DNA from: a virus
Lineage: Duplodnaviria > Caudoviricetes
IMG/VR virus record: IMGVR_UViG_3300048893_000029
Location: 1-34,639 of that record
DNA: 34,639 nucleotides
Reading direction: 5' to 3' (one strand)
The notes under the pieces: model-generated
Databases searched by the model: none
What the model was told of the DNA's origin: nothing
The model's input: the letters and a program-made list of their open reading frames with translations, nothing else
Program-made: the position numbers and the translations under genes
Part shown: one piece after another, positions 5,466 to 32,462 of the stretch
Layout of the letters: each line of letters starts with the position of its first letter
How positions within the stretch are numbered: position 1 is the first letter of the stretch

Positions 5466-5510
5466 CTACGGTCTGATTATTGGAATAATCAGACCTAAGG
5501 AGAAATCTGT

Positions 5511-5576
5511 ATGCTTTCAATACCAGCTTGTATAATTATTATGTTTCTTGTTGCAGGAATTGGCTGGACAAAATAA
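5511..5576 (+). CDS. 21-aa hydrophobic peptide (MLSIPACIIIMFLVAGIGWTK)
   Basis: Strong SD AAGGAG; single TM segment. Confidence 0.4.
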   Translation: MLSIPACIIIMFLVAGIGWTK

Positions 5577-5643
5577 GCCCAACAAGATGGTTAACTTTTA
5601 TACCGTTTTTTAGTACTTAATTCATACAATAAGGATATTTATA

Positions 5644-5820
5644 ATGAAGAATGAGTGCCAACATAAATTCAATCGTGAACACCCCAATTTTTTACAATGT
5701 GAACGATGTGACAAAACTGTACCTGTAATTTTAATGCAACGGATGAGTGCAGAGAAATTTTCGGAATTATTTCCCTCTCTTCAAGTTCCAGTTGGCCCTA
5801 TCATAATTAACGATGAATAG
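5644..5820 (+). CDS. Hypothetical protein (58 aa, C/H motif CQH...CERC)
   Basis: Translated by hand; AAGGA SD. Confidence 0.55.
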   Translation: MKNECQHKFNREHPNFLQCERCDKTVPVILMQRMSAEKFSELFPSLQVPVGPIIINDE

Positions 5821-5873
5821 GAAGGGTTACAAACTCCTAGTTTCTACTCCTGTACTTTTAAAATAATTTATGC

Positions 5874-5902
5874 TTGCACTCAAGATCATGATTTTGTACT
5901 AT
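5874..5902 (+). promoter_or_regulatory. Sigma70-like promoter TTGCAC-N17-TACTAT
   Basis: Consensus match with 17-nt spacer upstream of the acidic ORF/WGR pair. Confidence 0.55.
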
Positions 5903-5925
5903 GCTTACTTTTTGGGCGTACACAC

Positions 5926-6063
5926 TTGAGATTTTATGTGGATGGCTTAGAACTGGATGTTCAAGACCCAAAATTCTTTATGGACGAAGAGGAATATAAA
6001 CACACCAAAGAAACACTAGAAGAGATGTTGCAAACTTATGTTGATTTACCAATGGCTCAATAG
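5926..6063 (+). CDS. Small acidic protein (45 aa, TTG start, MRFYVDGLELDVQDPKFFMDEEEY...)
   Basis: Translated by hand; overlaps the WGR gene start; weak SD. Confidence 0.4.
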   Translation: MRFYVDGLELDVQDPKFFMDEEEYKHTKETLEEMLQTYVDLPMAQ

Positions 6064-6271
6064 AGCTAAAGACCGTTTTTATAAAATCGCTGTGCAAAAA
6101 GATGGAACTAACGTTGTACTTGATTACCATTGGGGTAGCTGTAATACAAATCGCGGTGGCAAGAAAAGTATTTTGTTATGCTCCGAAGAAGAAGCGCAAA
6201 AGACAATTGAACAAATGATGAAACGGCGCAAAAGTCGTGGGTACGAACTCATTGCGCCAATTCCTTTTTAG
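6038..6271 (+). CDS. WGR-domain protein
   Basis: RFYKI.VQKD...V...WG......G.K.......EEA.......K.R..RGY pattern. Confidence 0.8.
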   Translation: MLIYQWLNRAKDRFYKIAVQKDGTNVVLDYHWGSCNTNRGGKKSILLCSEEEAQKTIEQMMKRRKSRGYELIAPIPF

Positions 6272-6513
6272 ATATTTTCTGCTTGATGCAGATCGGCAAG
6301 AGATTTTTTATATTTTCTTTTTGGATGCTCTGCTTTTGGTTCTTCTTTTAAATCAATTCCTACTGGTTTCGGAGGTTTTTCTTTTGCCAAGATACCTTGT
6401 AACCAAAAGTTTGACTCTTCAAGATGACCTTCAAGCTTTGAATAATTGGCTTTTAGAACTTCCATATCAGCTTTTATGGTATTAATACGTTCCATTATTT
6501 GCTCTTTTGTCAC
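6268..6513 (-). CDS. Hypothetical coiled-coil protein (possible tail-fibre chaperone)
   Basis: Last late gene, AGGAG SD, directly after the fibre gene. Confidence 0.55.
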   Translation of the reverse strand: MTKEQIMERINTIKADMEVLKANYSKLEGHLEESNFWLQGILAKEKPPKPVGIDLKEEPKAEHPKRKYKKSLADLHQAENI

Positions 6514-6534
6514 ATCTTTCTCCTATTTTCAATT

Positions 6535-8376
6535 TTATGGGAATGAATCCACCGCGATTGAAGCATAAAAGCTAGCTGTTGTTCCAGAGGCAAATAACAC
6601 ATTTCCGTTCTGAGCCGTTAATCCAGCAGCACTTGCTGATTGTAAACTGTAATTGATATAACCAACATTCTGCTTAATTAAGGTTGCTATCATGGCACCT
6701 GTTGCGACACTTATAACCATAGAACCCGCTAAGTTATTCCCATCTAATAATGTAGATGAAGATGTAATATTAGCATTCGTGCCGTTAAAGCCTAATGTAA
6801 TACGTGCTTCTGTAGCTGTTGCTGTACCTGATGCAAAAGAGCCTCTTATTTCTAAGTTACCACCAACTCTTCTTGACCATACCGCAACACCCGTAACTGT
6901 ACCAAAACCTGTAAAGGTAGGAGTATAAGCAACCCAAGGAGTTACAATACCGATTGTTTTACCACCAATAGTAATACCTGATGGCAAATCAGTGGATAGA
7001 GAAGGCACGCCGCCCGCACTTGTTACTAGCACGCTACTATTTGCTGTTGCGAGTCCTGAAACCACATTAGCAGCACTGGAATAAAGTATCTGATTAATGG
7101 TTGTCGTAGCTGGATAAGTAGCAGTTGACCATGCAGGAGTTGTGCTCGCTCCTGATTGAAGCATTTGTCCAGAAGTTGCCGTTCCTGATAAAATGGCCAG
7201 TGTGGTTGCATTACTGTAAACAATACCACCATTGCTCGCGGTTAAACTTGCAGCCGTACCACCTCGTGTCAAACCTAATTGGCCAGTCCATCCTAAGGTC
7301 AAAGAGGCTGCATTCACTAACGCAGTTGTAGGGCTTCCACCAAGCGTTAGAGTGACGTTTGTATCGTCTGTTTTTGTTAAAGCTGCACCTGTCGGGATTT
7401 GGCTTGTAGTGGCCAATGTTCCGCTTGTTGGGAAAGTGACGTTTGTTGTATTTGTAAATGTGAACGTACTAGCAAAAGCACCACTTAAAGTATGACTTCC
7501 ACCCATTGTTAATGTAGAAGAACCATTGTTAACACCTGTACCACCATAAGTAGAGCCTATCACCGTACCTTGCCAAGTACCTGTTCCAATGGTTCCTAAA
7601 GTGGTAATAGAGCTTTGACCTACATAACTTGCTGAAATATCAATTACAGGAGTTGTGCCACCTGTTGAGGTGATGCGGTTTAATGTACCTGATACGCTAG
7701 TTACAGAAGTTGCCGAAGTTTCAATTGTTGCCCAAGTACTTCCATCCACTGTTGCTTCAAATACGCTGGTTTGGGTATTAAAGCGCATTGTTCCCGCAGC
7801 CCCAGCGCGTGAGGCCGTGTTTCCTTGAGGCAATGTTACTCCACCAGTTCCGGGCAATACTGCATTTGAGGCAAGACCCACAGATACCGCACCTACTGCC
7901 GCGGAAACTGTAGTTTGATTTGCAACGGACGATAGACTTGTAACCGCTCCGGCCGCTGTTAGCAAAGTTCCAGAAGTTGGAAAAGTAACACTCGTATTTC
8001 CAGTTAATGTTCCGGTAAAAGTAAATGCACCTGAAAAGGCTGTGTTTCCGCCTAATGTTAATGTGCTTGTGCCATTATTAACTCCAGTACCGCCTCGTGC
8101 TGGAGATAAAAGACCAGACCATCCGAGCGTTAAAGAAACACCTTGCAATAAAGAGGTATTTGGTGTGCCACCAAGTGTTAGAGTCACATTTGTGTCGTTA
8201 GTACGCGTCAATGCAGCGGGCGTAAAAGGCGCACCAAATTGGGCTGCGAAATCAGAAAACAACATGCCAGCATCATTACCGGGCGAATAAGGAGATCGCG
8301 CAAAATACATTAAATCCGCGCCCTGATTCGTAGTGATCGGGTTGTCTGTAAATATTTGTTGTAATGTACGTGACAT
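6535..8376 (-). CDS. Tail fibre protein, T/G/S-rich with internal repeats
   Basis: RGGTG repeats, LPQGNTASR...GTMRFNT motif, position in tail module. Confidence 0.8.
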   Translation of the reverse strand: MSRTLQQIFTDNPITTNQGADLMYFARSPYSPGNDAGMLFSDFAAQFGAPFTPAALTRTNDTNVTLTLGGTPNTSLLQGVSLTLGWSGLLSPARGGTGVNNGTSTLTLGGNTAFSGAFTFTGTLTGNTSVTFPTSGTLLTAAGAVTSLSSVANQTTVSAAVGAVSVGLASNAVLPGTGGVTLPQGNTASRAGAAGTMRFNTQTSVFEATVDGSTWATIETSATSVTSVSGTLNRITSTGGTTPVIDISASYVGQSSITTLGTIGTGTWQGTVIGSTYGGTGVNNGSSTLTMGGSHTLSGAFASTFTFTNTTNVTFPTSGTLATTSQIPTGAALTKTDDTNVTLTLGGSPTTALVNAASLTLGWTGQLGLTRGGTAASLTASNGGIVYSNATTLAILSGTATSGQMLQSGASTTPAWSTATYPATTTINQILYSSAANVVSGLATANSSVLVTSAGGVPSLSTDLPSGITIGGKTIGIVTPWVAYTPTFTGFGTVTGVAVWSRRVGGNLEIRGSFASGTATATEARITLGFNGTNANITSSSTLLDGNNLAGSMVISVATGAMIATLIKQNVGYINYSLQSASAAGLTAQNGNVLFASGTTASFYASIAVDSFP

Positions 8377-8388
8377 AAATATCCTTAT

Positions 8389-8529
8389 TTATGCAAGTAA
8401 TAGATGAGTGAAATCTGTGAGCAAAAAATCCGTATGATCCGTTTGCAAAAAGAATCCTTCTGTTGGAGGAATTGCACTAGCTCCAGCATAAAGAAGAATC
8501 ATGATCAGCCCACCATAAGCACCCTGCAT
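8389..8529 (-). CDS. Small virion-module protein (46 aa, MQGAYGGLIMILLY...FLLTDFTHLLLA)
   Basis: Translated by hand; AAGGA SD; FxLTD repeats as seen in tail-fibre-associated peptides. Confidence 0.55.
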   Translation of the reverse strand: MQGAYGGLIMILLYAGASAIPPTEGFFLQTDHTDFLLTDFTHLLLA

Positions 8530-8543
8530 TTTAAAATCCTTTT

Positions 8544-8564
8544 AAAAAAGGGGGTTTCCCCCCT
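8544..8564 (-). terminator. Rho-independent terminator
   Basis: Minus strand AGGGGGG-AAA-CCCCCT followed by a U-tract. Confidence 0.7.
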
Positions 8565-8569
8565 AATAT

Positions 8570-9556
8570 TTATACAGTTGCAATTGTGCGGTAGTACACA
8601 TCAACAATCCAAGTACCGTCACCAGTCGTAAACGCACCAGTTAAGTTACTTAAATATATTGCAGCATTCGCACAGGTAGAGAATGGAGCACCAGTTGAAA
8701 GTCCACTTCCTAAACGGAACATTGTGCTTGCAGCAGCAAAGAAATCAGCAGCGGCTTCTGTTGAACTTGCAGCAGGGCCAGCACCATGTGCAGTTGAACC
8801 ATATTGAGCACCAACCACGCCACCAGCAGCATAAGCCGCAGATACGAACGTCATGCCTAAAGTAATTTGCTCAACTACGTTGATTTTATTAGCACCGGGT
8901 GCAGCTACTAATTGAACAGGAGTTGCATACATGCCATTCCATTGTGCAGCAGTTAAAGTAACTCGCGCATGTTGAAGCACGTTAGATACGTTAAATCCTG
9001 AATCTTGAATAGTTCCCGCAGTATCAGCAGCAGATACGAAGTTACCAGAAGTAAATCCAGAACCCGCGGTACTAGCAACATCACCAAGGGAGTTATTAGT
9101 TGCAGCTTTTGCACCAGCAGTTCCCAAAGCAGAGCTTAAAGGAGAAGATACATAAACAAATGCATCAACACCGATGTTTTGTGGAATGGGTTCAACCAGT
9201 GCGAAAGCAGCACCAGCATTCACAGTACCAGCACCAATTAAGATGAACTGGCCAGCTTTTAATTGCTCGATGTTTTGTTGGTCAAAAGCACGTTGCAAGA
9301 CTACGGTTGAAGTGATGAATTCAACAACATAAACGCCATTTTGAAGTGCGGCTGTTTGGTTTTGCAATAAAACCCTATCGCCAACTCTCAAAACCACGCT
9401 ATCAATTGTTAAAGAGCTAGCAGCAATAGTTAAAGTTGCGCCAACGCCATTGTTAGAGGGGCCATTGTTATAAGTTCCTGCTACGTTGGTTAAAGCCACC
9501 ACTCGCGCAGGGGTTAAATCGTTAAACAGTACTGTTTGTCCTAAACTTGTAGTCAT
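8570..9556 (-). CDS. Virion fibre/decoration protein
   Basis: IDSVVL.VGDRVLLQNQT....NGVYVV...QRA.D domain common in phage fibre proteins. Confidence 0.7.
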   Translation of the reverse strand: MTTSLGQTVLFNDLTPARVVALTNVAGTYNNGPSNNGVGATLTIAASSLTIDSVVLRVGDRVLLQNQTAALQNGVYVVEFITSTVVLQRAFDQQNIEQLKAGQFILIGAGTVNAGAAFALVEPIPQNIGVDAFVYVSSPLSSALGTAGAKAATNNSLGDVASTAGSGFTSGNFVSAADTAGTIQDSGFNVSNVLQHARVTLTAAQWNGMYATPVQLVAAPGANKINVVEQITLGMTFVSAAYAAGGVVGAQYGSTAHGAGPAASSTEAAADFFAAASTMFRLGSGLSTGAPFSTCANAAIYLSNLTGAFTTGDGTWIVDVYYRTIATV

Positions 9557-9603
9557 TTTAAAGTCCTTTTAAATGATTAGTAATATATTACCTTTGAAGT
9601 TAG

Positions 9604-11554: not shown

Positions 11555-11672
11555 ATTCACATTCCTTGTGAAATTTTAATTATTTTACATTAATACTGAA
11601 TCATTTAGTATGAATGCTTGTTTTTTATTCAACTATTGTTCTATAATTACTCATTTAACCAAGAGTATAATT

Positions 11673-15012: not shown

Positions 15013-15021
15013 TATTAATCC

Positions 15022-15627: not shown

Positions 15628-15654
15628 GGTCACATTCCTTGTGCTAATTAATCT

Positions 15655-15954: not shown

Positions 15955-15959
15955 CCTTT

Positions 15960-17774
15960 TTACTCCGGTAAAGTTTCATAATTCCAAGCCGCACCCAAGA
16001 CAATAAAGGGAATCTCACTAAAGAATTCGACTCTTGGAACAAATCCCTGTCCTCGTGGCGTGGTTCCGACTTTTCGCCATACGGTTCTATGGGTTCGCTC
16101 ACCTGTTTTGCCCATCGTTGCGTGTAAATTATTACCATAGCTTTGCCCCCCATCTTTTGAGACCGACAAATAAACGGTAGGTTGAGCATTTGGCGCATAA
16201 GGAATGGTTAAAATATTGTCCAAACCATGGTCTGGTGTGAACCCTAATGCCCCTGTAGATAACGCCCCTTGTAATAAATCAAGATGCCATCGGTCAATCC
16301 TCAATCGCTTATAACCCTTTGGAGTCATTTGACGACCTATTCTCATACGCCTGATGCGTTCACCGTTATTTGTAGTGACCTGATCACTTACGATGTAAAA
16401 TAGAGCCTTCTCATAATCTCCATAGAAATTAACACCAGCAAAATAAGCATGGGTCTGGGCGGGATGTCGATCCCCATTGATAACCTCCTCTTCATGCCAT
16501 TTAGGAGAATCAGAAGTACTCATGGACACATTAAGTACAAAAGTATGATTCGCCGCGGTAAAATTTAATCGATAAAATATCAATCCATTTTCTTTAATCA
16601 ATATGCCTCTTGCATCAGAAACACCGGGGCCAGCCGCATATTGTGCTAGCTGATAATCCAATGCCCTATTGCTTACCAAGAGTGATTCAGTACCTTTAAC
16701 TTCCATCACACCCGCAAGACCATCACGGTCTTGAGCCAAGAAGAACATTCTATCAAAACCCACGGCAACACTGGCAATAGCGGGTGTTCCAACTTCCATC
16801 AAGAGCGAATTATTGCGTCTGAATGGCAATGTGGTTCCAAGTCCTGCATTTTCCCAAACTTCACAATAGTACTGAGAAAATAAAAAGATACGTCTATGCA
16901 GCGTTTTACAAGCAACAATCGTTCCCGGATGTGAGGTAATGCTACCAAACTGCAATTGACCTGATACGGTAATAGTATTGGTCGGTGCTCCATTAGTTGT
17001 TAAATCAATCGCGGTTCCTGCGATGGCATTTGCATAACTTGTAGCCAGTTTAATCGTTCCCGGGTTAGTTGCCGGAGTACCAACCATAATCACATAATAT
17101 GTGGTGGTAGTATTTAAAGGTGCTGGCAATGTACCAGTCGTAGTAAAGGTAACTGGAACTCCTGTTTGGAAGTTCGCATTACTTGTGCTTAATGTAAGAA
17201 TATCGGTCGCACTGCTTGCTGTGAATGTCGCTGAACCACCACTCCAAACCATGCCATTGTTAATCAGTGACAAATAAAAATTATTAGTGCCGCCAGCGGC
17301 AACCAAAAAGAATCCATCGAGATAACACACATCAATGGGATCAGCGGGAAACCCGACATCAGTAATTTGCGCAAAAGTTGTAGCATTTGTATCCCATATG
17401 TAACCTAATACACCATCAACAAAAATCACCTGATACTGGTTTGCATCAATTCCTACATAACCAGCCGATGTACCAATAGCACCTATTTTTGATTTAACTA
17501 AGGAGCCAACCGTTCCCGTTATTAAAAATATCGAAGTACCAAATACTTGATAAATGGCATCTTGAAATACGAATGTAGCTCTTGAGCCACCCGTTTCAGG
17601 AGCAAATGACAAAGTAGAATCAACTAATCCAGAGGTTGATATAAGTGCCTTTGGCCTTTTGCCATTGGTATCTAAGTATTCAAATACGTTAACACTGCGT
17701 TCAGCATTAATAGTGCTGATTCTTTGGTTATCGTAGCTACCTACAAAATCATAATCTTCGCAATCACTTGCCAT
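15960..17774 (-). CDS. Tail hub / DNA stabilisation protein (P22 gp10-like)
   Basis: S.DGG.SYGN....MGK.GE...R..WR..G C-terminal motif; YLDGFF; synteny. Confidence 0.85.
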   Translation of the reverse strand: MASDCEDYDFVGSYDNQRISTINAERSVNVFEYLDTNGKRPKALISTSGLVDSTLSFAPETGGSRATFVFQDAIYQVFGTSIFLITGTVGSLVKSKIGAIGTSAGYVGIDANQYQVIFVDGVLGYIWDTNATTFAQITDVGFPADPIDVCYLDGFFLVAAGGTNNFYLSLINNGMVWSGGSATFTASSATDILTLSTSNANFQTGVPVTFTTTGTLPAPLNTTTTYYVIMVGTPATNPGTIKLATSYANAIAGTAIDLTTNGAPTNTITVSGQLQFGSITSHPGTIVACKTLHRRIFLFSQYYCEVWENAGLGTTLPFRRNNSLLMEVGTPAIASVAVGFDRMFFLAQDRDGLAGVMEVKGTESLLVSNRALDYQLAQYAAGPGVSDARGILIKENGLIFYRLNFTAANHTFVLNVSMSTSDSPKWHEEEVINGDRHPAQTHAYFAGVNFYGDYEKALFYIVSDQVTTNNGERIRRMRIGRQMTPKGYKRLRIDRWHLDLLQGALSTGALGFTPDHGLDNILTIPYAPNAQPTVYLSVSKDGGQSYGNNLHATMGKTGERTHRTVWRKVGTTPRGQGFVPRVEFFSEIPFIVLGAAWNYETLPE

Positions 17775-17776
17775 AA

Positions 17777-18514: not shown

Positions 18515-18533
18515 GGCTCATCTCCTTATGATG

Positions 18534-18577
18534 AAAAAAAGCGAGAAAATCGACACATCACATGGACGTGTCGATTG
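18534..18577 (-). terminator. Probable terminator after the coat gene cluster
   Basis: AATCGACAC...GTGTCGATT stem followed by a U-rich tract on the minus strand. Confidence 0.5.
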
Positions 18578-18584
18578 CTTCGAC

Positions 18585-18991: not shown

Positions 18992-19002
18992 ATGCTTACT
19001 CC

Positions 19003-20214: not shown

Positions 20215-20298
20215 TTGCTAGTCTCCATTTAATCCGTTAAATGGGTACATAGCGGTGTACCAAGGGTTCCAGTGGGTTTCGTCCTTGAAACCCTTAGA

Positions 20299-21120: not shown

Positions 21121-21285
21121 CTCAACTACTCCATGTTGACATCTCCAAGATGTCAGTCGTCAATACGGTAGACAACTAACCCTAGACCTTCCGGCGGCCT
21201 GAGACCCTAGGCAAATCCTTTGCCCGATAGTTAAATATTAGACCTAACAAAACCCTTTTTCGACCCCACATATGGGGGTACGCAA

Positions 21286-23493: not shown

Positions 23494-23604
23494 GCTTTTC
23501 CCCGTCCGTTGGGTTAAACACATTAAATCGTGACTTCAACAAATCTATGTCAAAGTCACGTTTAAACGCTTTTAAATCGGCTCATCCTGAACCGACTTTG
23601 TTAC

Positions 23605-23856
23605 TTAAGCTGCTTCTTGGCTTTCTTGTTCTGCTTCGATAACAGGTTTTGGAGCTTCCCATTTAACCCAATCGTCACCTTCGAAGTCTGCAATGGAGAA
23701 AATGAAGTTACCAGCGTTTGCAGTAGGTTGAGTAACGATTTTCCATACGTAACTCATGTCTGGAAGAATCTTTAAATAACCTTCTTTTTCTTCCCATGCG
23801 CTTCTACGCATTGCATCGCCCGCTTTCATTTGTGCTAAAGCTTCTAAAAATAACAT
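23605..23856 (-). CDS. Second DUF2829/Tad2-like protein
   Basis: M.F.EAL..MKAG..MRR.AW ... S.AD....DW signature. Confidence 0.65.
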   Translation of the reverse strand: MLFLEALAQMKAGDAMRRSAWEEKEGYLKILPDMSYVWKIVTQPTANAGNFIFSIADFEGDDWVKWEAPKPVIEAEQESQEAA

Positions 23857-23876
23857 CCTTATTTCTCCTTTTTGGT

Positions 23877-24137
23877 TTATGGTAAAACTGTTAATTGGCA
23901 TGAGCCGTTAGTGAATACTGGCTTGTACCATTGGTGGCCATCAGAACCAACGGCTGCAATAAAGTCACTAGCGAGCAATTCATTGCCGTTTGCTTTTAGA
24001 TAACCATCTAAAAATCCAGCAGCGGCTATTTGAGCTAAAGTATTGTTAGGTGCATTTAATCGCCCCATACGTGGAGTTAATCCATTTTCTTGTCCGGGGA
24101 AATGTAGCTTTAAAGTTACTTGTGCTTGTGCTGTCAT
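23877..24137 (-). CDS. Putative capsid decoration/small structural protein
   Basis: TLA.I.AAGFL.......L..SD.I.....DG pattern seen in small phage structural proteins. Confidence 0.45.
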   Translation of the reverse strand: MTAQAQVTLKLHFPGQENGLTPRMGRLNAPNNTLAQIAAAGFLDGYLKANGNELLASDFIAAVGSDGHQWYKPVFTNGSCQLTVLP

Positions 24138-24148
24138 TTTAGATCTCC

Positions 24149-24301
24149 TTATCGATTAGCTAGTCGTTTACATACATCTTGTATGCTCTGGTTGTTTTTT
24201 ATCTTATCGAATGCCATCTCGTAAAGGCTTCTGCATTCCCTACACATTTTCTCATCTTTCTGTCGGTTATAGAACCTACCACATCCTGTACATTTAATCA
24301 T
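24149..24301 (-). CDS. Zn-ribbon protein (50 aa, MIKCTGCGRFY...CREC)
   Basis: Translated by hand; ATGA coupling; two CxxC pairs. Confidence 0.6.
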   Translation of the reverse strand: MIKCTGCGRFYNRQKDEKMCRECRSLYEMAFDKIKNNQSIQDVCKRLANR

Positions 24302-24471
24302 TTACCTACAGTCCTTAATAGTACAACATTATTCTCATATTTAGCTTCTTTCTTTGGCTTATTGTTGAGCATGTCTGTAATGTCACGTAATTCCTTCAAA
24401 CACTCAAGGCACTTTGTTGCCAACATTTTTCGCCCGTATCGTCCACAATAAACGCAGCGGGTTGCATTCAT
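24298..24471 (-). CDS. Zn-ribbon protein (57 aa, MNATRCVYCGR...CLEC)
   Basis: Translated by hand; two CxxC pairs. Confidence 0.55.
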   Translation of the reverse strand: MNATRCVYCGRYGRKMLATKCLECLKELRDITDMLNNKPKKEAKYENNVVLLRTVGK

Positions 24472-24474
24472 ATA

Positions 24475-24807
24475 TTAACCTTGCCTTACTTTACCTTTGC
24501 TTGTAATTATATATCGGCCATGATCAGCACCGCCTAAATAAATCTGCCGTGATTCCAATTCTTTCTGTCGCCTATTTCGTGCCAATTCTTCTTCACGTGC
24601 GTTCAATCGTTCCCTATATTCCCTTAGTTCCCTGAGTTTTATTTCAGTTTCTTCTAATTCTTGTTGACGCTTAATTTCATACTCTTTTCGCCTTAATTCT
24701 TGCTCAAGAGCATATTTTTCTCGTTCTTGTTCGTAAATAATGCGCTGTTCGTATGCGTTACGTCTATGTTCATAGTATTCATAAGAACATTCAGTGCCAC
24801 TTGTCAC
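24475..24807 (-). CDS. E/R-rich coiled-coil protein; start uncertain
   Basis: ORF track; frame stays open about 47 codons upstream with no ATG. Confidence 0.5.
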   Translation of the reverse strand: MTSGTECSYEYYEHRRNAYEQRIIYEQEREKYALEQELRRKEYEIKRQQELEETEIKLRELREYRERLNAREEELARNRRQKELESRQIYLGGADHGRYIITSKGKVRQG

Positions 24808-24932
24808 TAAATCCGCATAAGATTGACAGCTATTGATAGTCGTAAGCTTATCAATATTAAGCTTTCCGGTTTCTAAATCTTTGTACCTATAGTCAAATAA
24901 GTACTCGTGATGAGCGCTAATTTCATCATTCC

Positions 24933-25100
24933 TTATTTGGCTGAGAGCTTACGCAATGCCGCTTTTAATTCGTCAATATCAATATCAACCCCATTGACTT
25001 CATCACATACATGAACACGAATCTTGCTTTGGTCATCGGTACTATTAATAATCAAAGCAGGATTATCTTTTTCATCATAAATCGTAATAGAAACCATCAT
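24933..25100 (-). CDS. Small acidic protein (55 aa, MMVSITIYDEKDNPALII...)
   Basis: Translated by hand; starts directly after the terL stop. Confidence 0.55.
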   Translation of the reverse strand: MMVSITIYDEKDNPALIINSTDDQSKIRVHVCDEVNGVDIDIDELKAALRKLSAK

Positions 25101-26660
25101 TCAAAATATCCTCATCACTGGATTAAACATATTCTCATGCTTATTGTTGCCAACCTTGTCTTGTACAACTTGGTCACTAGCAATTTCTAAACACCCATAA
25201 CCCAAAGCATCCATAGGATGAGATGACATATTCTTGGTTGGCTTATCCTTGAATCGTTCCTCACCAGCAACGGCAATCCGGGCATAAACGTACTTCTTCA
25301 CAAAGCCCTTGAACAATGTAGGGCAATTCTTTTTGTCTAATAACAATGCAGGTTTACCATCAACCATACGATTTAGAAAATATCTAACCGCTCCTAGTCG
25401 TGGCTCAAGGTCATTAGTTCGTGCTGCAATTGTTGGAATCTCAAGTGAATTAAGCTCACCAATACAAGACATTTCCTCATGAATCTGATCGCGAGCATTT
25501 CCGGCTGGATCAGCTACAGACAAACCCACTTGGCAATAGGGAAAATCCTTGCGCAAACTAGGTATCACAATCATTTCTGCAAAGGTTCTTATGCCTAAGC
25601 CATCGCTCACATATTCTTTTAAAAGTAATATTTGACCACGAGCAGACAATTGAAGCACCACACAGGCCGGAGTTAAACCAAAATCCCAACCCAATATGAG
25701 CTTTTCACCTTGTATTGCTTCTAGTTTATCAACTGCATGTAAATCAGGGTTAAACTCAGGGAATACACGCTTGTCAAAGCCAACTGCACCATATTCACCT
25801 AAGCAAAACACTTTGATGAATTCCTCTGATTGCCCACTGGCTAGATTCTCATAGTAGCTATGGGGCAAATGCCCTGCATTATCAGCATTAGGGTTTCTAC
25901 GCCATTGATTCTCAGCGTTCTTAATTAATCCCGGTGGCTGCTTAAAAAGTATGTGATTCTCAGCGCAGTTCTCTTCAAAGTCTTTGAATATCCAATGGTC
26001 ATCTTCTGGCGGGTTAGTATCGGCTATGATTCCAGACCAGTAATGTTCTTTACAGAATGCCTTGGAAGGATAGCGATTCACACGGCCTTTCATATGTGCC
26101 AATGCTGCTTTTGGAACTTCGGATAATTCGTTAATGTAGCAACCTGTTAGCTCTAATGATTTAATCTTTCGAACGTCTTCTGGTCTATCTAATGCAATGA
26201 ATAGTAACTCAAGCTCTACAATTCCATTGCCATCATTGAAGCTATGCTCATAAGTAAGCATAGGCTTTTGACGCTTTCGAATATCTCCGAGTTCATCAAA
26301 CCATGCAAGCCATGTTGCTAGGGTAGTTGTTGAAAGTTCACCAGAAGTATTCCGCACGATTCCCCATCGGCTTCTTCGTCTACCGTTATTCCAAGCTGGA
26401 ACTTCACAGGCTCGTTTAACAATTTCAGCAATTGAGAGTGTTGACTTCCCACTTCCATAAGGCCCCATAATGACACGCACAAATTTATCGCAGTCATGAA
26501 AAAGAGCACCCGTGGGAGTCGGAACATAAATTTTATCCTGCTCATGCGCATGTATAATCATCCTATCAGGTTGAATGGTTAATTGTCTTTGAGTGCCTTT
26601 GTTAATCCCGGCCTCATATTCATTAAAGGTTTTCAAGAGTTCCGCAGCCGATCGAATCAT
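25101..26660 (-). CDS. terL: Terminase large subunit
   Basis: Walker A GPYGSGKS, Walker B YINE, DTNPP coupling motif, nuclease GWDFG, SH..DA..Y. Confidence 0.95.
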   Translation of the reverse strand: MIRSAAELLKTFNEYEAGINKGTQRQLTIQPDRMIIHAHEQDKIYVPTPTGALFHDCDKFVRVIMGPYGSGKSTLSIAEIVKRACEVPAWNNGRRRSRWGIVRNTSGELSTTTLATWLAWFDELGDIRKRQKPMLTYEHSFNDGNGIVELELLFIALDRPEDVRKIKSLELTGCYINELSEVPKAALAHMKGRVNRYPSKAFCKEHYWSGIIADTNPPEDDHWIFKDFEENCAENHILFKQPPGLIKNAENQWRRNPNADNAGHLPHSYYENLASGQSEEFIKVFCLGEYGAVGFDKRVFPEFNPDLHAVDKLEAIQGEKLILGWDFGLTPACVVLQLSARGQILLLKEYVSDGLGIRTFAEMIVIPSLRKDFPYCQVGLSVADPAGNARDQIHEEMSCIGELNSLEIPTIAARTNDLEPRLGAVRYFLNRMVDGKPALLLDKKNCPTLFKGFVKKYVYARIAVAGEERFKDKPTKNMSSHPMDALGYGCLEIASDQVVQDKVGNNKHENMFNPVMRIF

Positions 26661-26842
26661 TTCTCTAATATCCTCCGTGGCGGAGGCGTTTGATAGTTGG
26701 GATTTTCTCTAATGTTTTCTTGCGTTGAAAAGCGAACGCCGCATTTGATGCATTCGCGTCTTCTGATTATTTTATTTAGCCTATCATCCCGAGTTGTATC
26801 TATTACTCGTGACTCGGGATAGTTGCACTTATTGCATTGCAT
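26657..26842 (-). CDS. NrdR-like N-terminal Zn-ribbon protein (no ATP cone)
   Basis: M.C..C....SRVIDT......IRRRECI.CG.RFST.E. Confidence 0.8.
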   Translation of the reverse strand: MQCNKCNYPESRVIDTTRDDRLNKIIRRRECIKCGVRFSTQENIRENPNYQTPPPRRILEK

Positions 26843-27028
26843 CTATTTTCGAACCCCACGTAATGTTTTTACTAGGATGGCTGTCGAAGGAACAGAGAAC
26901 CTTTTTTTAGGCTTTTTGGCATCATGAGCGTATGTATCAGCTAATGGGTCTCGGTCATAAGAAGGTGCGGTCTCATGTTCTTTTTTCTTCTTAATCTTCT
27001 CAATCCAACTGTTTCTAATGGTAGCCAT
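26843..27028 (-). CDS. Small basic protein
   Basis: ORF with SD, Lys-rich. Confidence 0.6.
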   Translation of the reverse strand: MATIRNSWIEKIKKKKEHETAPSYDRDPLADTYAHDAKKPKKRFSVPSTAILVKTLRGVRK

Positions 27029-27059
27029 GTATTCACATCCCTATGTGTTATGTACCGCA

Positions 27060-27272
27060 TTACTTCTTCTTTTTTCCTAGAACTTTATCGGCTTTAGCAT
27101 CTATCTTCATTTTTGAATCCATTGATAGTTTGCCTTTTTTCTCCATTTCAGAAGCTCTTGCCTTTGCATTCTTTGCGTGGCTCTTATCTTCCATCGGATA
27201 GGCACGTTTTCCGGGCAACCCAAATTCGCCCTTTGGAATCTTATTGCGTTCTTTAGTGTCTAATTTAGCCAT
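27060..27272 (-). CDS. Small basic protein (DUF6582-like)
   Basis: L.TKERN.IP...FGLP..R.YP..D..HA.NA.AR motif. Confidence 0.7.
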   Translation of the reverse strand: MAKLDTKERNKIPKGEFGLPGKRAYPMEDKSHAKNAKARASEMEKKGKLSMDSKMKIDAKADKVLGKKKK

Positions 27273-27281
27273 GATATATCC

Positions 27282-27464
27282 TTATATTTTAATTGATATG
27301 TCTTCTATTAGTTCAGCGACTAGATGTATTTCCTTTTCTAGCTGTCTAGTAGAAGTTGTATAAATATTATCAATTGCGCCTTCAATCCTTGATGTATTGT
27401 CATAGACAGCTTGTGTAAGTCTGTCTAGAGAATCAATCAATGCTTGGCATTGTTCATCAGTCAT
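27282..27464 (-). CDS. Small acidic helical protein
   Basis: ORF coupled to the upstream gene. Confidence 0.55.
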   Translation of the reverse strand: MTDEQCQALIDSLDRLTQAVYDNTSRIEGAIDNIYTTSTRQLEKEIHLVAELIEDISIKI

Positions 27465-27616
27465 TTTCTAGCCTTTTTCTTCTTCTTACTTTCATCAGCT
27501 TCACTGTAAGCAATAGCTACTGCTTGCTTTTGTGGCTTGCCCGCTTCCATTTCTCGCTTGACGTTAGTGCCAAATCCTTTGCGAGTCTTGGCCTTAGCTC
27601 CTTTAATTAGCGGCAT
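27461..27616 (-). CDS. Small basic protein (51 aa, MPLIKG...EM.AGKPQKQAVAIAYS; DUF6496-like)
   Basis: Translated by hand; KQAVAIA motif; AAGGAG SD. Confidence 0.7.
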   Translation of the reverse strand: MPLIKGAKAKTRKGFGTNVKREMEAGKPQKQAVAIAYSEADESKKKKKARK

Positions 27617-27779
27617 GATCGGCTCCTTGACTAGATTGATTTAGTTTGCTTTCAGCCCATGCGATCACTTCGGTAGCTAGTGTATGAGCTTGCTTGATGA
27701 GGAACTCGGCAATAACTGGTTCTTGATTAACCAATTCAGCTTCGAGTTTGGGAAGAATAATAGAACTTAATAAACTCAT
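27603..27779 (-). CDS. Hypothetical protein (58 aa, MSLLSSIILPKLE...)
   Basis: Translated by hand; AAGGA SD. Confidence 0.6.
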   Translation of the reverse strand: MSLLSSIILPKLEAELVNQEPVIAEFLIKQAHTLATEVIAWAESKLNQSSQGADHAAN

Positions 27780-27788
27780 GATATGTCC

Positions 27789-27959
27789 TTATATCGATTC
27801 GATCATGTGATCGATTTCAATGATTGCGCCGTTAATGTTCGCAATCTCCTTCTTTATCACCTTAACGCGCTCCTTAAGCAAGTCCAAATCAACTTGGCTT
27901 GTAGTGAGGGTATTGGCTAAAGATTCCCTGCGTGCTTGCAATACTTCCAATGTAATCAC
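27789..27959 (-). CDS. Coiled-coil protein (56 aa, GTG start, MITLEVLQARRE...)
   Basis: Translated by hand; AAGGA SD. Confidence 0.55.
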   Translation of the reverse strand: MITLEVLQARRESLANTLTTSQVDLDLLKERVKVIKKEIANINGAIIEIDHMIESI

Positions 27960-27988
27960 GTGTCACGTTCCTTGTTGTTGAAGGCGCA

Positions 27989-28186
27989 TCATGCGCCCAC
28001 TAAATTCTCATCAATATATTTAACACCTTTCATCATTGCGCAATTGAAAGATTTAACATCTTCCCATCCCGCAATCAGTTCCCCGCATGGCTTCTTAACG
28101 TCTACGATGTAGGTTTTATCTATCATCTCGTAGATTGTAATATCAAAACCTTTGTACTCTTTATCACTCACATGGTTATACAACAT
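27989..28186 (-). CDS. Hypothetical moron protein with its own promoter
   Basis: GAGGAG SD; upstream TTGTTT-N17-TATAAT on the minus strand (about 28229-28257). Confidence 0.65.
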   Translation of the reverse strand: MLYNHVSDKEYKGFDITIYEMIDKTYIVDVKKPCGELIAGWEDVKSFNCAMMKGVKYIDENLVGA

Positions 28187-28271
28187 TTAACATCTCCTCA
28201 TCACAACAATTAACATTCAATGAGGAGTATTATATATTTACTGATTTAATTAAACAAGTATTTAATTACAT

Positions 28272-28445
28272 TTATTTCAAATAACCTTTCTTTCCGTAGT
28301 TCTCTTTACTTTGAGGCGGAAGATTACGAGATGCTCCTGCTTCTGCATAGGTGCGAATCTCTTGTTTCTGTTCACGCTCAAGGTAAATGTTATTGCGAGT
28401 AGCTTGATAGCCATCTGGTTTATGTGATGTGTATTTAGCGCCCAT
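28272..28445 (-). CDS. Hypothetical protein (57 aa, MGAKYTSHKPDGY...)
   Basis: Translated by hand; AAGGAG SD. Confidence 0.6.
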   Translation of the reverse strand: MGAKYTSHKPDGYQATRNNIYLEREQKQEIRTYAEAGASRNLPPQSKENYGKKGYLK

Positions 28446-28544
28446 GTTATTCTCCTTAATTGGTGGCTGCTCTGAGCTGACTCGTTGGTTATTCGTTCGC
28501 TTTAGTTCCCTTCAAACCTGGACTCTCAAAGACTTATGCCATAT

Positions 28545-28691
28545 TTAGTATTTGCAATCCTTCTTCTTCATCTTAGACTTGAGCACTTCATTGCCCATCA
28601 TCTTCTTGTCTTGCTTGGTGTCTTTGCGCTCTTCTTTCTTGTCATTACGCTTGATCATCTTCTTGATTTCGTTCTTCGTTACCTTTGCCAT
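28545..28691 (-). CDS. Very basic small protein (48 aa, MAKVTKNEIKKMIKR...)
   Basis: Translated by hand; AGGAG SD inside the terS 3' end. Confidence 0.55.
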   Translation of the reverse strand: MAKVTKNEIKKMIKRNDKKEERKDTKQDKKMMGNEVLKSKMKKKDCKY

Positions 28692-29103
28692 GTTTAGCTC
28701 CTGCCATTAAGTTCATACGTTCGTTTAGTTCTTTGAGCAATACGTTATTACCGAAGTACTTAGGCCATCTTCGCTCTAACATCCAAGCATCGGCTTGCCA
28801 TCTTTCAGGTTTAGCTGCAATCATGTCTGTATGCTCAAGGACTCTATCAAGTTCAGCCCTTTTTATAGACTCGGAAAACTTTGTATATTCTGTGTCCAGC
28901 CCTTGGAGTTGATGAGCCTTACCAGTATTGAGCCAATCATAGAGTGTGGCTTCGCAAATGCCGTTCGCTTCGGCTGCTAGCTCATAGGGAATACGCCTTG
29001 ATATGTCGTTTATGATTTTCGCCCGTCTTTCAGGGGTGAACTTGCTATTTCTAGCAATATCGGTAACTTCATCAGGCTTTTTAATCCTTGCGTTTCTAGT
29101 CAT
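28645..29103 (-). CDS. terS: Terminase small subunit (HTH)
   Basis: SKFTPE...I...I..., AA...GI...TLY.W...G, WQA.AW.LERR.P..FG motif. Confidence 0.8.
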   Translation of the reverse strand: MTRNARIKKPDEVTDIARNSKFTPERRAKIINDISRRIPYELAAEANGICEATLYDWLNTGKAHQLQGLDTEYTKFSESIKRAELDRVLEHTDMIAAKPERWQADAWMLERRWPKYFGNNVLLKELNERMNLMAGAKHGKGNEERNQEDDQA

Positions 29104-29143
29104 CGCACTAATCCTTTAGTGTATGTAAAACATGATATGAATA

Positions 29144-29362
29144 TTACTGTTTTTTGTTCTTTAATACTACCATAATGAAAAATAATACAACGGTTTCAAA
29201 GCCATCCAAAGAAGACAGCAACTGTATCACTGAATCATAATCAAACTTTCTAGCCTTCACCATTTCGATTAAGCTAGAAATAAATTGTATAAAGCACAAA
29301 AAAGTAGGAACAGTCATCACCGTTGCGGGCTTTGATTGAATATAATCTCGTATGCGCTTCAT
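29144..29362 (-). CDS. Putative holin
   Basis: Two hydrophobic segments, basic C-terminus, adjacent to the endolysin. Confidence 0.5.
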   Translation of the reverse strand: MKRIRDYIQSKPATVMTVPTFLCFIQFISSLIEMVKARKFDYDSVIQLLSSLDGFETVVLFFIMVVLKNKKQ

Positions 29363-29370
29363 TTGTCACC

Positions 29371-29784
29371 TCATACCACCAGTTCAAAGTGATCGGCATC
29401 ATTAAGCTGTCCGGGTCTATCAAGCTTTCCTAATCCATCCCAAGAACCACCCCAACGCACAGAATGGGTCATTTTCCCCTCATCCTTGAGTTTTTGAGCT
29501 ATACCCATGACATAACCACCAAACCATAGTGAAAGCTTCTCATCGTTTAAATTTACCGGGTAAGGTGTCACATCTACGGCCATTGAAGGGTTGGCATTAT
29601 GCTTGCCATGTGGCCAATGCAGTTTTGTATTGCCTTCTTCAAAGGCTTTCTCTTGGTCTGCTTCATTGCGATAGCCTTCAAGAATCGTGCAATCGAAGTA
29701 TTTAATCACCTCATAAAACAAAGCCTGTAAATCAGGATGGCATGTAGACAGCTTTGAAAATGATGCTTGGCTAAATTTTGGCAT
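29371..29784 (-). CDS. Endolysin, M15 family L-Ala-D-Glu peptidase
   Basis: HPDL, EGYR...Q, KH......AVD, RWGG.W, D..HFEL. Confidence 0.9.
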   Translation of the reverse strand: MPKFSQASFSKLSTCHPDLQALFYEVIKYFDCTILEGYRNEADQEKAFEEGNTKLHWPHGKHNANPSMAVDVTPYPVNLNDEKLSLWFGGYVMGIAQKLKDEGKMTHSVRWGGSWDGLGKLDRPGQLNDADHFELVV

Positions 29785-29889
29785 TAACTTTCCTTGTCTT
29801 GTTTAAATTAAGTGTAGCAAATAATAGCCCTATTGCTAGGGCTAGACAGGAGGGAAGTTACAATGAATCAGATTAATAATAATAGAAAT

Positions 29890-30297
29890 TTAAGCGTGGA
29901 GATAGCTTTCAATAATTCTTATGCCATCTTCCCAACCATAGCAGAAGTGACCGTCAAATCCTACTGTCTTCATGCGCTCTATCCAAATTTCTTGATTAAT
30001 CCAAGTCTCAGACTTCCTCGCTGATGGCGGGTAGTGCATATTGCGCTTCACTTCCAGCCAAAGCCCTGCATATAAACGTGTACGGCTCGGGTAAGGAATG
30101 AACAAGTCACTCACACCCGGGCGCAAACCCATTAACTTCAAGTTCCAAGTTTGGGCTTCTGTCCTTTTGCCTTCATTGTTGTTCTTGTAAAAGTAATCCT
30201 TCAAAACCGGGTGGAGACTCAGCCACTTGACCAGAGCACGTTGCTCTTGGTTCTCCGTGGGAATCAGAAACTTTCGTGTCATCCTTGACCTCATCAT
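29890..30297 (-). CDS. VRR-NUC domain nuclease (resolvase-like)
   Basis: E..EQ, NEGKR, G.RPGVSDL, LEVK (PD-D/ExK). Confidence 0.85.
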   Translation of the reverse strand: MMRSRMTRKFLIPTENQEQRALVKWLSLHPVLKDYFYKNNNEGKRTEAQTWNLKLMGLRPGVSDLFIPYPSRTRLYAGLWLEVKRNMHYPPSARKSETWINQEIWIERMKTVGFDGHFCYGWEDGIRIIESYLHA

Positions 30298-30347
30298 TTC
30301 CGTATAAGATTTTCATCAACGCTAAAACATCTTGTTTTTCACGCAAA

Positions 30348-30512
30348 TTAACCGACTTTTTTTTCATGCTTCTTTGCTTCCTCTTCATCCGCGCAACGGC
30401 GTAAAAATATTTCTGATGCTTCACTAATGGTCATGCTATTGGGTAAAAAACCCTTAACACATGCAAGCCACGCAACAAACTTCTTTGCTTTCTCTCCTTG
30501 AATCGTACTCAT
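30348..30512 (-). CDS. Hypothetical protein (54 aa, MSTIQGEKAKKF...)
   Basis: Translated by hand; AAGGA SD. Confidence 0.55.
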   Translation of the reverse strand: MSTIQGEKAKKFVAWLACVKGFLPNSMTISEASEIFLRRCADEEEAKKHEKKVG

Positions 30513-30527
30513 TTCATCATCCTTGTT

Positions 30528-30725
30528 TTAGTAGTACTTTAATTGACCAACCATCTCCTCGTAGCACTTGATGGCTTCCTCTATTTTTTCATCAGGGTGT
30601 GCGTCCAAGACTTCCTTGCAATGTTGCTGCAAGAATTCAATGTCATCACCGCCATGTCCATCTGAAACTTTTTTTATCAGCGTACACAAATAATTCTTAC
30701 GCGCTATCCATAACGCCTTATGCAT
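30528..30725 (-). CDS. Hypothetical protein
   Basis: TGATG coupling to the P-like gene. Confidence 0.6.
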   Translation of the reverse strand: MHKALWIARKNYLCTLIKKVSDGHGGDDIEFLQQHCKEVLDAHPDEKIEEAIKCYEEMVGQLKYY

Positions 30726-31645
30726 CAGTCATGCGCCCAATTTTTATACATTTTAGTAGGTCGCCCATTACCAGTTCTATCAGAGGCTTTCTGAGATGCA
30801 AACCCTTCACGCTGGCTAGGCGGTACGTAGCCTTGTTTCTTTAACCATTCACCTTGATCACGCATATTCAAAAACTTATTACGCTCCATCACATAAACAG
30901 GCGGTAAAATCATGGTTTCGGTCTCAGGAATGCTAAGAAGGTATGATTTGTATTCATCAAACACGGCCTGATCAAACTCTCTATGCCCCTTCTTTACCTT
31001 GTTTGCGTCAAATTCCTTGTAAGTCTTTCCACCACCAGCAATCTTTTTGCTTTGAAGTATTTCTTGGCATTTATTCATACACTCACGAAACGCTTTGCTT
31101 TCTTCTGTGCTTGGAATCTTGGATGGTGCGGGTAGTTCCTTGGGTCTGGAATTATATTCTTCAAGGTGCGCCCATGCTTTGTGAGGTTCAACATGAAACT
31201 CAGCCCTTAATGTGGCGTAGTGCTCTTTGACCTTGCGCTCAATCTCTTCTGCTTTGCCATTGGTGAGCGTCCATGAACCAATCTTGTCATACACCATCTT
31301 GACCAATGGATGGCTAAAGTCACGAGCAACCATCAAGCGGATCACCTCTTGCTGTGAAGGCATTCCAGACTCTTTCATGCATAATTCTACGAGTTGGCCT
31401 AATGTTGGCGGGTACTCTTCGAACTCTGTTAAAGTCTTGTTAACGGCTGCACGCACTTGGTCAATGGAGAACTTGCTAAGTTCTTCCAACCAATCTTCCA
31501 TGATGTATTCCCAATCATCATCATGGCTTGCTCGTGATGTCCAAAGATTGCCGTACCTTCCACGAAACCGCGCAAAGAGCCTAGCAATCAGTGAGGCATC
31601 AACGTAATGGGTCAATTGTATTACCGCTGGCGTGGTCATATACAT
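30725..31645 (-). CDS. Replication protein P-like helicase loader
   Basis: LF......YG..W..., W...L, PPTL.Q...LC; follows the initiator. Confidence 0.65.
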   Translation of the reverse strand: MYMTTPAVIQLTHYVDASLIARLFARFRGRYGNLWTSRASHDDDWEYIMEDWLEELSKFSIDQVRAAVNKTLTEFEEYPPTLGQLVELCMKESGMPSQQEVIRLMVARDFSHPLVKMVYDKIGSWTLTNGKAEEIERKVKEHYATLRAEFHVEPHKAWAHLEEYNSRPKELPAPSKIPSTEESKAFRECMNKCQEILQSKKIAGGGKTYKEFDANKVKKGHREFDQAVFDEYKSYLLSIPETETMILPPVYVMERNKFLNMRDQGEWLKKQGYVPPSQREGFASQKASDRTGNGRPTKMYKNWAHD

Positions 31646-32414
31646 TTCCCTTGTTCAAGTGCCTATTGATTACCCGTGATAAAGCATCACCGCCTGTGTT
31701 TCTGGGTTTTTGGGTTTTGGGTGGAGTAAGCGCATCATGCCATCGTTCGTTTTGTAGGTAGGTTGAAGGGTGAGGTATGAATTGAAGCTCTTGCCATTGT
31801 CCATCGTTAACAAGGCGGTTGCTCACATCATTCATGATTTGTTCTGCATTAGTGTTCAGCGCGTACTTATCCCAAATCTTTTTGGCGCGCACTTTGTTTT
31901 TCTTTATGGGGTATATATTCCAGAATTCATTAAAAGCACATGGTTGGCGCGTTTGTGCTTCGGTAGAAGCACTATTGTTTTTAGATCTTTCTTTTGTATC
32001 TTCTTTCTTTTCTACACTGTTTCTTTTATAGGTGCTGTTATCCGTAGCACGGTTATCCGTGTCACGGTTTTCAGCAAACGGTGCACATTTTTCCTCAGAG
32101 TCCTTGATTATAAAGGCCGTTCCGTCATTTACCTGTAAATCAAAGTGTGCAAATCTACCTTTTTCTGTGCGAACTTGCACAGTTTTTATGAGTGCATGTT
32201 CTTCAAGTATCGCTAGTAATGAATTGAGCTTATTGATTCCTAATAGTGCATGTTTTCTTAAGTGGTTTTTGTGGAATTCCCAACCATGAGGCATACTTAA
32301 AAGAAAACAATATAATCCTAAAGCTTCCATATTGCGTAAGTTTTGAAGAACCTTGTTTGGAAAAGTTGTAAAATTACCTTCATTCTTGCTTACCTTATAT
32401 TTTTGTACACTCAT
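31599..32414 (-). CDS. Replication initiator (lambda O analogue)
   Basis: N-terminal wHTH NFT..PN...LGLY.FLLS.P..W; C-terminal F.EFW..YP.K..K and FIPHPSTYL..ERW.D. Confidence 0.85.
   Translation of the reverse strand: MSVQKYKVSKNEGNFTTFPNKVLQNLRNMEALGLYCFLLSMPHGWEFHKNHLRKHALLGINKLNSLLAILEEHALIKTVQVRTEKGRFAHFDLQVNDGTAFIIKDSEEKCAPFAENRDTDNRATDNSTYKRNSVEKKEDTKERSKNNSASTEAQTRQPCAFNEFWNIYPIKKNKVRAKKIWDKYALNTNAEQIMNDVSNRLVNDGQWQELQFIPHPSTYLQNERWHDALTPPKTQKPRNTGGDALSRVINRHLNKGNVYDHASGNTIDPLR
31976..32083. other. Putative replication origin: iterons plus asymmetric AT-rich tract inside the initiator gene
   Basis: CTGTTATCCGTAGCA / CGGTTATCCGTGTCA / CGGTTTTCAGCAAA at about 15-nt period next to a T-rich tract. 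Confidence 0.65.
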
Positions 32415-32462
32415 GGCTAAATCCTTTTAATAGGGTGAACAGCACATCTTGTGCATAAGGAA

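Follow-up and report, generated by a model that had tools for sequence, protein, structure and literature searches.

GGA-loop hairpins in the late-gene leaders of a P22-like phage family and a predicted role for host CsrA

We analyzed a 34,639-nucleotide stretch of viral DNA (IMG/VR record IMGVR_UViG_3300048893_000029, Duplodnaviria; Caudoviricetes; hereafter the window), in which many genes are preceded by short RNA hairpins with GGA in the loop. The window covers the complete 34.6-kb virus record, which has terminal repeats and 39.7% GC. Among its 67 scanned open reading frames (ORFs) are genes for P22-type portal, coat, scaffold, head-closure and ejection proteins and for a replication pair of the lambda O/P type; an integrase was not found among the 67. 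Judged by its structural module, the virus is a P22-like podophage. Its portal is less than 27% identical to those of named phages (best 30 of 114 named phage records). IMG/VR holds 75 loci with 58–100% portal identity to the window, and one distant locus. For comparison we used 31 whole or near-whole phage records, three of which (G035-G037) were included because of a tail gene and are either distant relatives or unrelated. A preliminary description of the window had listed 14 hairpin strings and proposed a genome-wide CsrA/RsmA regulon; all 14 strings lie where it placed them.

To score the hairpins, gene starts were called without regard to hairpins, which gave 57 genes, 46 of them with GGA in the Shine-Dalgarno (SD) zone. 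Each start was scored by the length of the longest Watson-Crick stem whose loop includes this GGA. Stems of at least 4 bp were found at 20/46 starts, of at least 5 bp at 11 and of at least 6 bp at 5. Shuffles that preserve the SD expect 5.0, 1.6 and 0.5, respectively, with a maximum of 12 in 2000 shuffles for the 4-bp class. Swapping 5′ and 3′ arms between genes expects 7.7, 2.6 and 0.7 (p=0.0005). Within coding regions, AGGA lies in stems of at least 4 bp at 11.5% of 96 sense sites and 13.3% of 60 antisense sites. The same pipeline gave background values for P22 (2/47), Sf6 (2/35), T7 (3/42) and VvAW1 (1/32), and for 360 kb of chromosome from the likely host order (13/168 starts, 14.8 expected). 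The window stands above the SD-keeping shuffles and above P22, Sf6 and T7, the comparison suggested in the preliminary description. The excess of GGA-loop hairpins is real and not due to chance.

The excess extends to the relatives. At p≤0.05, 23/31 phage records are enriched, and so are two distant P22-like prophages in the genomes G535 and G533 of the likely host order (12/35 and 15/45). The hairpins had been described as genome-wide; they fall mainly on the portal (late) strand, with 263/826 starts against 107 expected; for the opposite strand the figures are 71/415 and 54 (28 records, which are not independent). By gene family, hairpins occur at 24/27 tailspike-like, 21/26 terminase small subunit (terS), 20/28 gp7-like ejection and 36/67 fibre or decoration genes. 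Early genes mostly lack them (AAA ATPase 0/20, SSB 0/25, P-like loader 0/5), and the replication initiator alone has them in 7/10. Some late genes are also hairpin-poor, for example an 86-aa gene (2/25), and so is the SD of the capsid gene (3/28). Because early genes mostly lack hairpins, the set would chiefly form a packaging and virion regulon; of the replication, packaging and virion genes first proposed as targets, the latter two groups stand and the first is reduced to the initiator. Compared with swapped controls, late leaders keep the GGA more open and pair its flanks more, which indicates that the SD is displayed and not buried. The motif ANGGA is found at 203/236 late starts with a hairpin and 340/540 without, a difference that is partly a consequence of A-U closing pairs.

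The hairpins at or near individual gene starts are listed below, where stable in context means a pairing probability of at least 0.9, a value reached at 29106, 11556 and 8374.

29106..29121, minus strand: SD hairpin of terS; stable, with the same or a near-identical stem in 12/13 orthologous leaders
11556..11572, minus strand: SD hairpin of a tailspike-like gene (start 11554); stable, 24/27
8374..8393, minus strand: SD hairpin of a tail fibre gene; pairing probability 0.98 in context, z -2.7
15631..15643, minus strand: SD hairpin of a gp7-like ejection protein gene; moderate, 14/17 orthologous leaders and 20/28 whole genomes
8529..8547, minus strand: SD hairpin of a 46-aa gene; moderate, 14/22
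9553..9576, minus strand: SD hairpin of a 328-aa decoration or tail-fibre-like gene; moderate, family 36/67
27034..27047, minus strand: SD hairpin of a 61-aa gene; moderate, 14/27, stems wholly rewritten across relatives
27780..27795, minus strand: SD hairpin of a 58-aa gene; weak in context, often kept (10/16)
32418..32429, minus strand: SD hairpin of the replication initiator gene; weak alone, different stems in 7/10 GGA-bearing orthologues
18518..18534, minus strand: SD hairpin of an adaptor-like gene; weak, 12/33, pairing probability 0.05 in context
23501..23513, minus strand: portal leader hairpin CCC-AACGGAC-GGG; at least 4 bp in 20/42 orthologous leaders, newly found here
15959..15972, minus strand: GGA-loop hairpin before a 99-aa gene; 17/29, weak in context, newly found here

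The terS orthologues that keep the stem share 55–100% protein identity and their flanks have diverged; in whole genomes the hairpin is present in 21/26. The tail fibre gene at 8374 belongs to the tail-fibre/decoration family with 36/67. Five further orthologues of the replication initiator lack GGA. The portal start is predicted at 23493, and the stems of its leader are rewritten in the relatives L021, L050 and L055. At 15959..15972 the 5′ arm overlaps the end of the upstream coding region. Many stems are weak, at 0 to -4 kcal/mol. Among the 14 strings first described, those at 18995, 27274 and 5628 are kept at chance level only (7/35, 3/20 and 1/6), and the one at 5470 is a DNA site, described below; the ten others are those of the list, apart from the two new ones.

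Further hairpins, none of them listed in the preliminary description, lie in the leaders of the scaffold and capsid genes:

21209..21225, minus strand: 7-bp GGA-loop hairpin away from the SD, close to where the scaffold-capsid transcript is predicted to begin
21137..21155, minus strand: second GGA-loop hairpin away from the SD, inside an insert of ~27 nt in long-leader scaffold untranslated regions
21122..21139, minus strand: hairpin with the scaffold SD in its loop (AUGGAGUA); weak conservation among relatives, 5/40
20274..20293, minus strand: upstream GGA-loop hairpin of the capsid leader at -70, away from the SD; GGA in 31/41 loops
20225..20244, minus strand: -21 hairpin of the capsid leader, loop ANGGAN; the SD begins within its 3′ arm

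The scaffold 5′ hairpin lies 98 nt upstream of the AUG in the window and ~72 nt upstream in short-leader relatives. We aligned 44 scaffold leaders (43 of 48 distinct leaders plus the window; 1 identical and 4 near-duplicate rows were dropped). In this alignment 95.7% of the cells are paired, and 69 cells are compensatory against 16.0 in shuffled alignments (0/500); these shuffles, like those used for the other leaders, ignore relatedness, so their outcomes are not probabilities. A slid control gave at most 58% pairing. GGA is kept in 40/44 loops. In addition, every aligned long scaffold leader inserts an extra GGA hairpin near the SD. The aligned inserts carry GGA in the loop in 9/9 cases and are 100% paired, with 11 compensatory cells against 3.9 and rewritten stems. 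The loop of the window's own insert is UUGGA, not A(N)GGA, and the hairpin is out-competed in the local fold.

In the capsid leader, the hairpin at -21 is present in 46/54 distinct leaders. The capsid alignment holds 40 leaders plus the window, after exclusion of the 8 without this hairpin, 1 identical row and 5 near-duplicates. Pairing is 92.4% overall and 99% in the -21 hairpin, with 33 compensatory cells against 8.2 in shuffles. The -21 loop reads ANGGAN in 39/41 leaders, with N being A in 17, U in 11 and C in 11. The second hairpin lies ~49 nt away; its 5′ arm can instead pair with a downstream arm, and its GGA is unpaired in the centroid fold. The region 20225-20312 (minus strand) is strongly structured (z -5.6). 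Slid controls for the hairpins away from the SD were far lower throughout. The compensatory changes in all three sets of leaders bear out the earlier proposal of selection on RNA structure. Since the scaffold and capsid leader hairpins away from the SD are not ribosome-binding sites, GGA in their loops is not forced by the SD. With their covarying stems and the ANGGAN loop kept in the capsid leader, they are the best evidence for the signal. Altogether the scaffold-capsid unit holds up to five GGA loops.

Other features were seen around these two leaders. Two of them lie upstream of the scaffold 5′ hairpin:

21263..21279, minus strand: conserved palindrome of the type CCCC-ATAT/GT-GGGG, upstream of the predicted scaffold promoter
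21235..21240, minus strand: predicted -10 element, TAATAT in the window and TATAAT as consensus in relatives, as suggested by the alignment

In the alignment the palindrome lies ~22 nt upstream of the -10-like element, and it is a candidate binding site for a late transcription activator or repressor. A scan with the palindrome pattern gave at most one match in any genome and missed the variant present in the window, and a scan with the promoter consensus found fewer sites than in shuffles. At 21184-21208 (minus strand) nearly all aligned scaffold leaders share the conserved string GGGTYTCAG, after which come an AGGCC...GGTCT hairpin and AGGG; the loop of this hairpin usually lacks GGA. In the scaffold leaders L033, L018 and L040, AUGAU replaces AGGAU in the 5′ loop and the stem is intact. 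Overall hairpin counts at these three loci are low (3/13, 2/19 and 2/25), possibly reflecting loss or retuning of the regulon. In the capsid leader, one 5′ arm has two possible partners and may form a two-state switch. Long-range pairing between the scaffold and capsid leaders was rejected, as own pairs were no better than swapped pairs (p=0.56). A peat metatranscriptome from one study has contigs of a relative over scaffold-capsid, one of them ending in the scaffold leader; start, strand and level are not readable from these contigs, and they were not used as evidence.

The arrangement of the loops resembles that of known CsrA sites. In the RsmE/CsrA rule, A and GGA are conserved and N is variable in an ANGGAN loop; CsrA dimers bridge sites 10-63 nt apart, and in glgC a hairpin site just upstream of the SD is combined with a site at the SD (PMC7652899). 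The leaders described here have GGA in a hairpin loop, a fixed A and GGA with a free N at the capsid -21 site, and either a site over the SD or another one 10-63 nt away. We found no CsrA gene (PF02599) in the window or in 37 virus records. A sequence-based CsrA profile search of 14,501 six-frame segments from the 31 records and 2 prophages had a best E=2; the profile was built from eight CsrA segments, with the VvAW1 control among the seeds. The window has no Rfam match and no dense sRNA-like array of GGA, so both a phage CsrA and a Csr-type decoy small RNA (sRNA) were searched for and not found. Nor was any RNA-binding family found among the proteins scanned. CsrA was present in 5/5 genomes tested from the likely host order. 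Host CsrA as the putative reader of the loops is thus supported by the ANGGAN rule at sites away from the SD, by the lack of a detectable phage CsrA and by CsrA in these 5/5 genomes.

The host order was approached through the following site:

5470..5495, no strand: dif/XerL-type DNA recombination site with 11-bp arms, not part of an RNA regulon

Its arms match the published att of phage LME-1 (PMC5071653), the Legionellales dif site on which XerL acts; the shortened att arm of LME-1 stabilises its integration (PMC9765430). The site also matches the direct repeat (attL/attR) at the two ends of a 35-kb prophage, which lies in the 3.3-Mb chromosome G535. The arm pattern was found in 133/206 genomes of the order centred on genome G093 (reversed control 0) and in 2/301 class-wide genomes, both within the same order. 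G093 carries DotA and five CsrA hits. Because of DotA in G093 and the match to the published att, the host order is likely Legionellales. The preliminary description had read 5470-5495 as a hairpin of the RNA regulon and had taken the missing integrase as an argument that a CsrA switch replaces lysogeny machinery. Neither claim holds: the site is a dif-type DNA palindrome whose spacer varies freely in other phage contigs, and such a site explains the missing integrase.

By sequence, the window fits the IMEX trait of the LME-1 type, a dif mimic without an integrase of its own. Dif-like sites occur in 10/31 phage records and a serine resolvase in 11/31 (G002, G003, G005, G008, G009, G010, G017, G021, G030, G031 and G034). 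Three records have both, 8 of the 11 with resolvase lack a dif-like site, and 13 have neither; in a quick portal tree both traits are scattered. The two are possibly alternative systems of dimer resolution: dif or resolvase could resolve episome dimers, or dif could mediate integration. Integration at host dif was seen for the distant G535 prophage alone, and no close family member was found integrated. This P22-like prophage (G535:C1:1738541-1774200) has dif-type att sites at both ends and a second dif-like site ~70 bp inside its right end, and its replication initiator is apparently split at the junction, as in LME-1. The G535 and G533 prophages share early and tail genes with the family at a portal/coat identity of 24-27%, and an AAA ATPase of the G535 prophage is 84% identical to a family member, a further pointer to this host order.

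Other routes to the host gave little. In a search for CRISPR spacers among genomes of the likely host order (window 14640-34639, 2 candidates per genome scored), 16 short DNA matches were inspected, and none lay in a repeat array. The order of G327 gave 0/12 DNA matches. Portal genes on short contigs of gammaproteobacterial and planctomycete bins were likely co-binned and were not used. A secreted 111-aa accessory protein (L132:9251-9586, minus strand; 4/31 records) resembles a Legionella protein domain. It matched only a Legionella lytica plasmid, with NttC as an Atlas lead at 0.80 and no longer relatives, a weak host hint; another is that the WGR protein matched Piscirickettsia plasmids. Matches of the serine resolvase were uninformative on the host.

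In the reading that we consider probable, host CsrA sits on the late leaders and keeps ribosomes off them until Rsm RNAs rise, so that particles form when growth in the protist stops. CsrA would dock on the GGA-loop hairpins in the leaders of packaging and virion genes. In single-site leaders (terS, ejection, tailspike and fibres) it would cover the SD, and in the capsid leader, with its sites ~49 nt apart, and in the scaffold leader a CsrA dimer would bridge two sites. While Legionella replicates, its CsrA keeps transmissive traits repressed, and on starvation RsmX/Y/Z sequester it (PMC5338858). At this replicative-to-transmissive switch the host Rsm sRNAs would titrate CsrA and release late translation, and virions would be built once the bacteria have spent their protist host. 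A stronger version, which we regard as rather unlikely, makes Csr/Rsm the main late switch and the scaffold-capsid mRNA both target and sponge. Past a threshold of copy number or Rsm, free CsrA would collapse, the virion genes would come on together, the cell would be pushed to the transmissive state and lysis would be timed to exit from the protist.

Several observations weigh against control by host CsrA. GGA is missing from 4/44 scaffold 5′ loops, three of which are AUGAU, and the first G is described as critical for CsrA (PMC7366521). It is also missing from 10/41 capsid -70 loops, and the -21 hairpin itself from 8/54 distinct capsid leaders. Several stems are 7-8 bp long, and most CsrA SELEX hairpins have at most 4 bp (PMC7652899); many loops are AGGA or GGA closed by A-U pairs instead of hexaloops. 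SD sites require GGA anyway, which makes GGA there less telling. LME-1, a cultured Legionella phage, has no hairpin excess in the same pipeline (1/24), and 8/31 records are not enriched, including the family members G010, G012, G018, G019, G024 and G025; in the quick portal tree the non-enriched records are mostly near the base, plus G010 and G012. Related phages share ancestry, so counts across them are not independent. Finally, the exact dif spacer of the window was found in 0/206 genomes, and in 7/206 with one mismatch.

Some of these points would suit a different reader. It is quite unlikely, in our judgment, that a late phage protein other than CsrA, such as free scaffold, the terminase small subunit or a small conserved protein, binds the GGA loops and balances virion stoichiometry. 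The trait tracks the P22-like clade and is absent as an excess from LME-1 of the same host order, AUGAU loop variants exist, and several small core proteins belong to no family. P22 scaffold reportedly autoregulates its synthesis. However, the loop rule is that of CsrA, and the CsrA of the likely hosts would bind such loops anyway. No RNA-binding family was found among the scanned proteins, and the distant prophages carry the hairpins yet share few non-structural proteins with the family.

Host CsrA might also bind with a mainly positive or indirect effect, to which we assign a low probability. It would then protect the 5′ end of the scaffold-capsid mRNA, or the late mRNA, being abundant, would soak up CsrA and itself set off the switch. 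The most strongly covarying hairpin lies directly after the predicted transcription start, like the CsrA sites of flhDC (PMC7652899), and the five GGA loops that the scaffold-capsid unit can hold would suit a sponge. At most sites, however, the loop contains the SD, so that bound CsrA should keep the ribosome off, and a dense sRNA-like GGA array or an Rfam match is lacking.

A role without any protein, in which weak stems tune ribosome loading for low-copy virion proteins and 5′ hairpins stabilise the mRNA, likewise has a low probability. The SD-loop sites are mostly on low-copy proteins (terS, ejection, tailspike and fibres), many stems are as weak as given above, and RNA can be protected by a stem-loop at its 5′ end regardless of the loop sequence. 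But this leaves unexplained both the GGA in loops away from the SD under changing stems (40/44, 39/41 and 9/9) and the free N beside a fixed A. The simpler way to tune loading with a stem would be to pair the SD itself, whose GGA is instead more open than in controls.

If repression by host CsrA is correct, the phage reads the global growth-phase regulator of its host in translation, at many late genes and without a copy of its own. Phage output would be linked to the replicative/transmissive cycle of intracellular Legionella-type bacteria. An SOS-independent cue would also be offered, although LME-1 itself lacks the hairpins; LME-1 is described as not induced by mitomycin C or UV, with its trigger undefined. 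In any case, the dif site gives this large family of uncultured phages a likely host order. CsrA-controlled leaders and phage-borne CsrA are already known, and the predicted control of phage late genes by host CsrA would be what is new here; we found no report of such a regulon in searches of mainly open-access literature.

The window also encodes other proteins of possible regulatory or anti-defence interest. Two genes have a Tad2-like (Thoeris anti-defence) domain, at 3000-3374 (plus strand) and 23605-23856 (minus strand), and this family has 48 copies across 26/31 records. Candidate regulators are a small protein at 32851-33048 (plus strand) with a ribbon-helix-helix look by eye and no Pfam match, an NrdR-like zinc ribbon at 26657-26842 (minus strand), a stand-alone DnaB N-terminal domain at 4524-5147 (plus strand) and the WGR protein at 6038-6271 (plus strand).

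Compared with known systems, the leaders are closest to those under CsrA, RsmA or RsmE, such as E. coli glgC and Pseudomonas hcnA (PMC7652899). In both, short hairpins present GGA in a loop whose A and GGA are constant and whose N varies, the sites coincide with the SD or lie directly upstream of it, and paired sites are close enough to be bridged. In contrast, the targets here are phage packaging and virion genes, some stems reach 7-8 bp, and CsrA binding is predicted. The Legionella CsrA-RsmX/Y/Z switch has the likely host order and the A(N)GGA loop motif in common with the window; its published targets are host genes, and the word "phage" is absent from the main text of that paper (PMC5338858). 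Phages with their own CsrA (PMC7366521; PTXU04 gp28, PMC11879866; VvAW1 gp26) likewise tie CsrA-type control to phages. They bring the protein along, whereas none was found in the window's family, and VvAW1 has its CsrA homologue yet no late hairpin excess (1/32). LME-1, a Legionella phage and IMEX of the dif/XerL type (PMC5071653, PMC9765430, PMC12407071), has the same dif-type arms and a few small genes in common with family members. Its virion module differs, with best matches in the unrelated record G036. LME-1 combines a shortened att arm with no hairpin excess, whereas the window has full 11-bp arms and an excess of GGA-loop hairpins.

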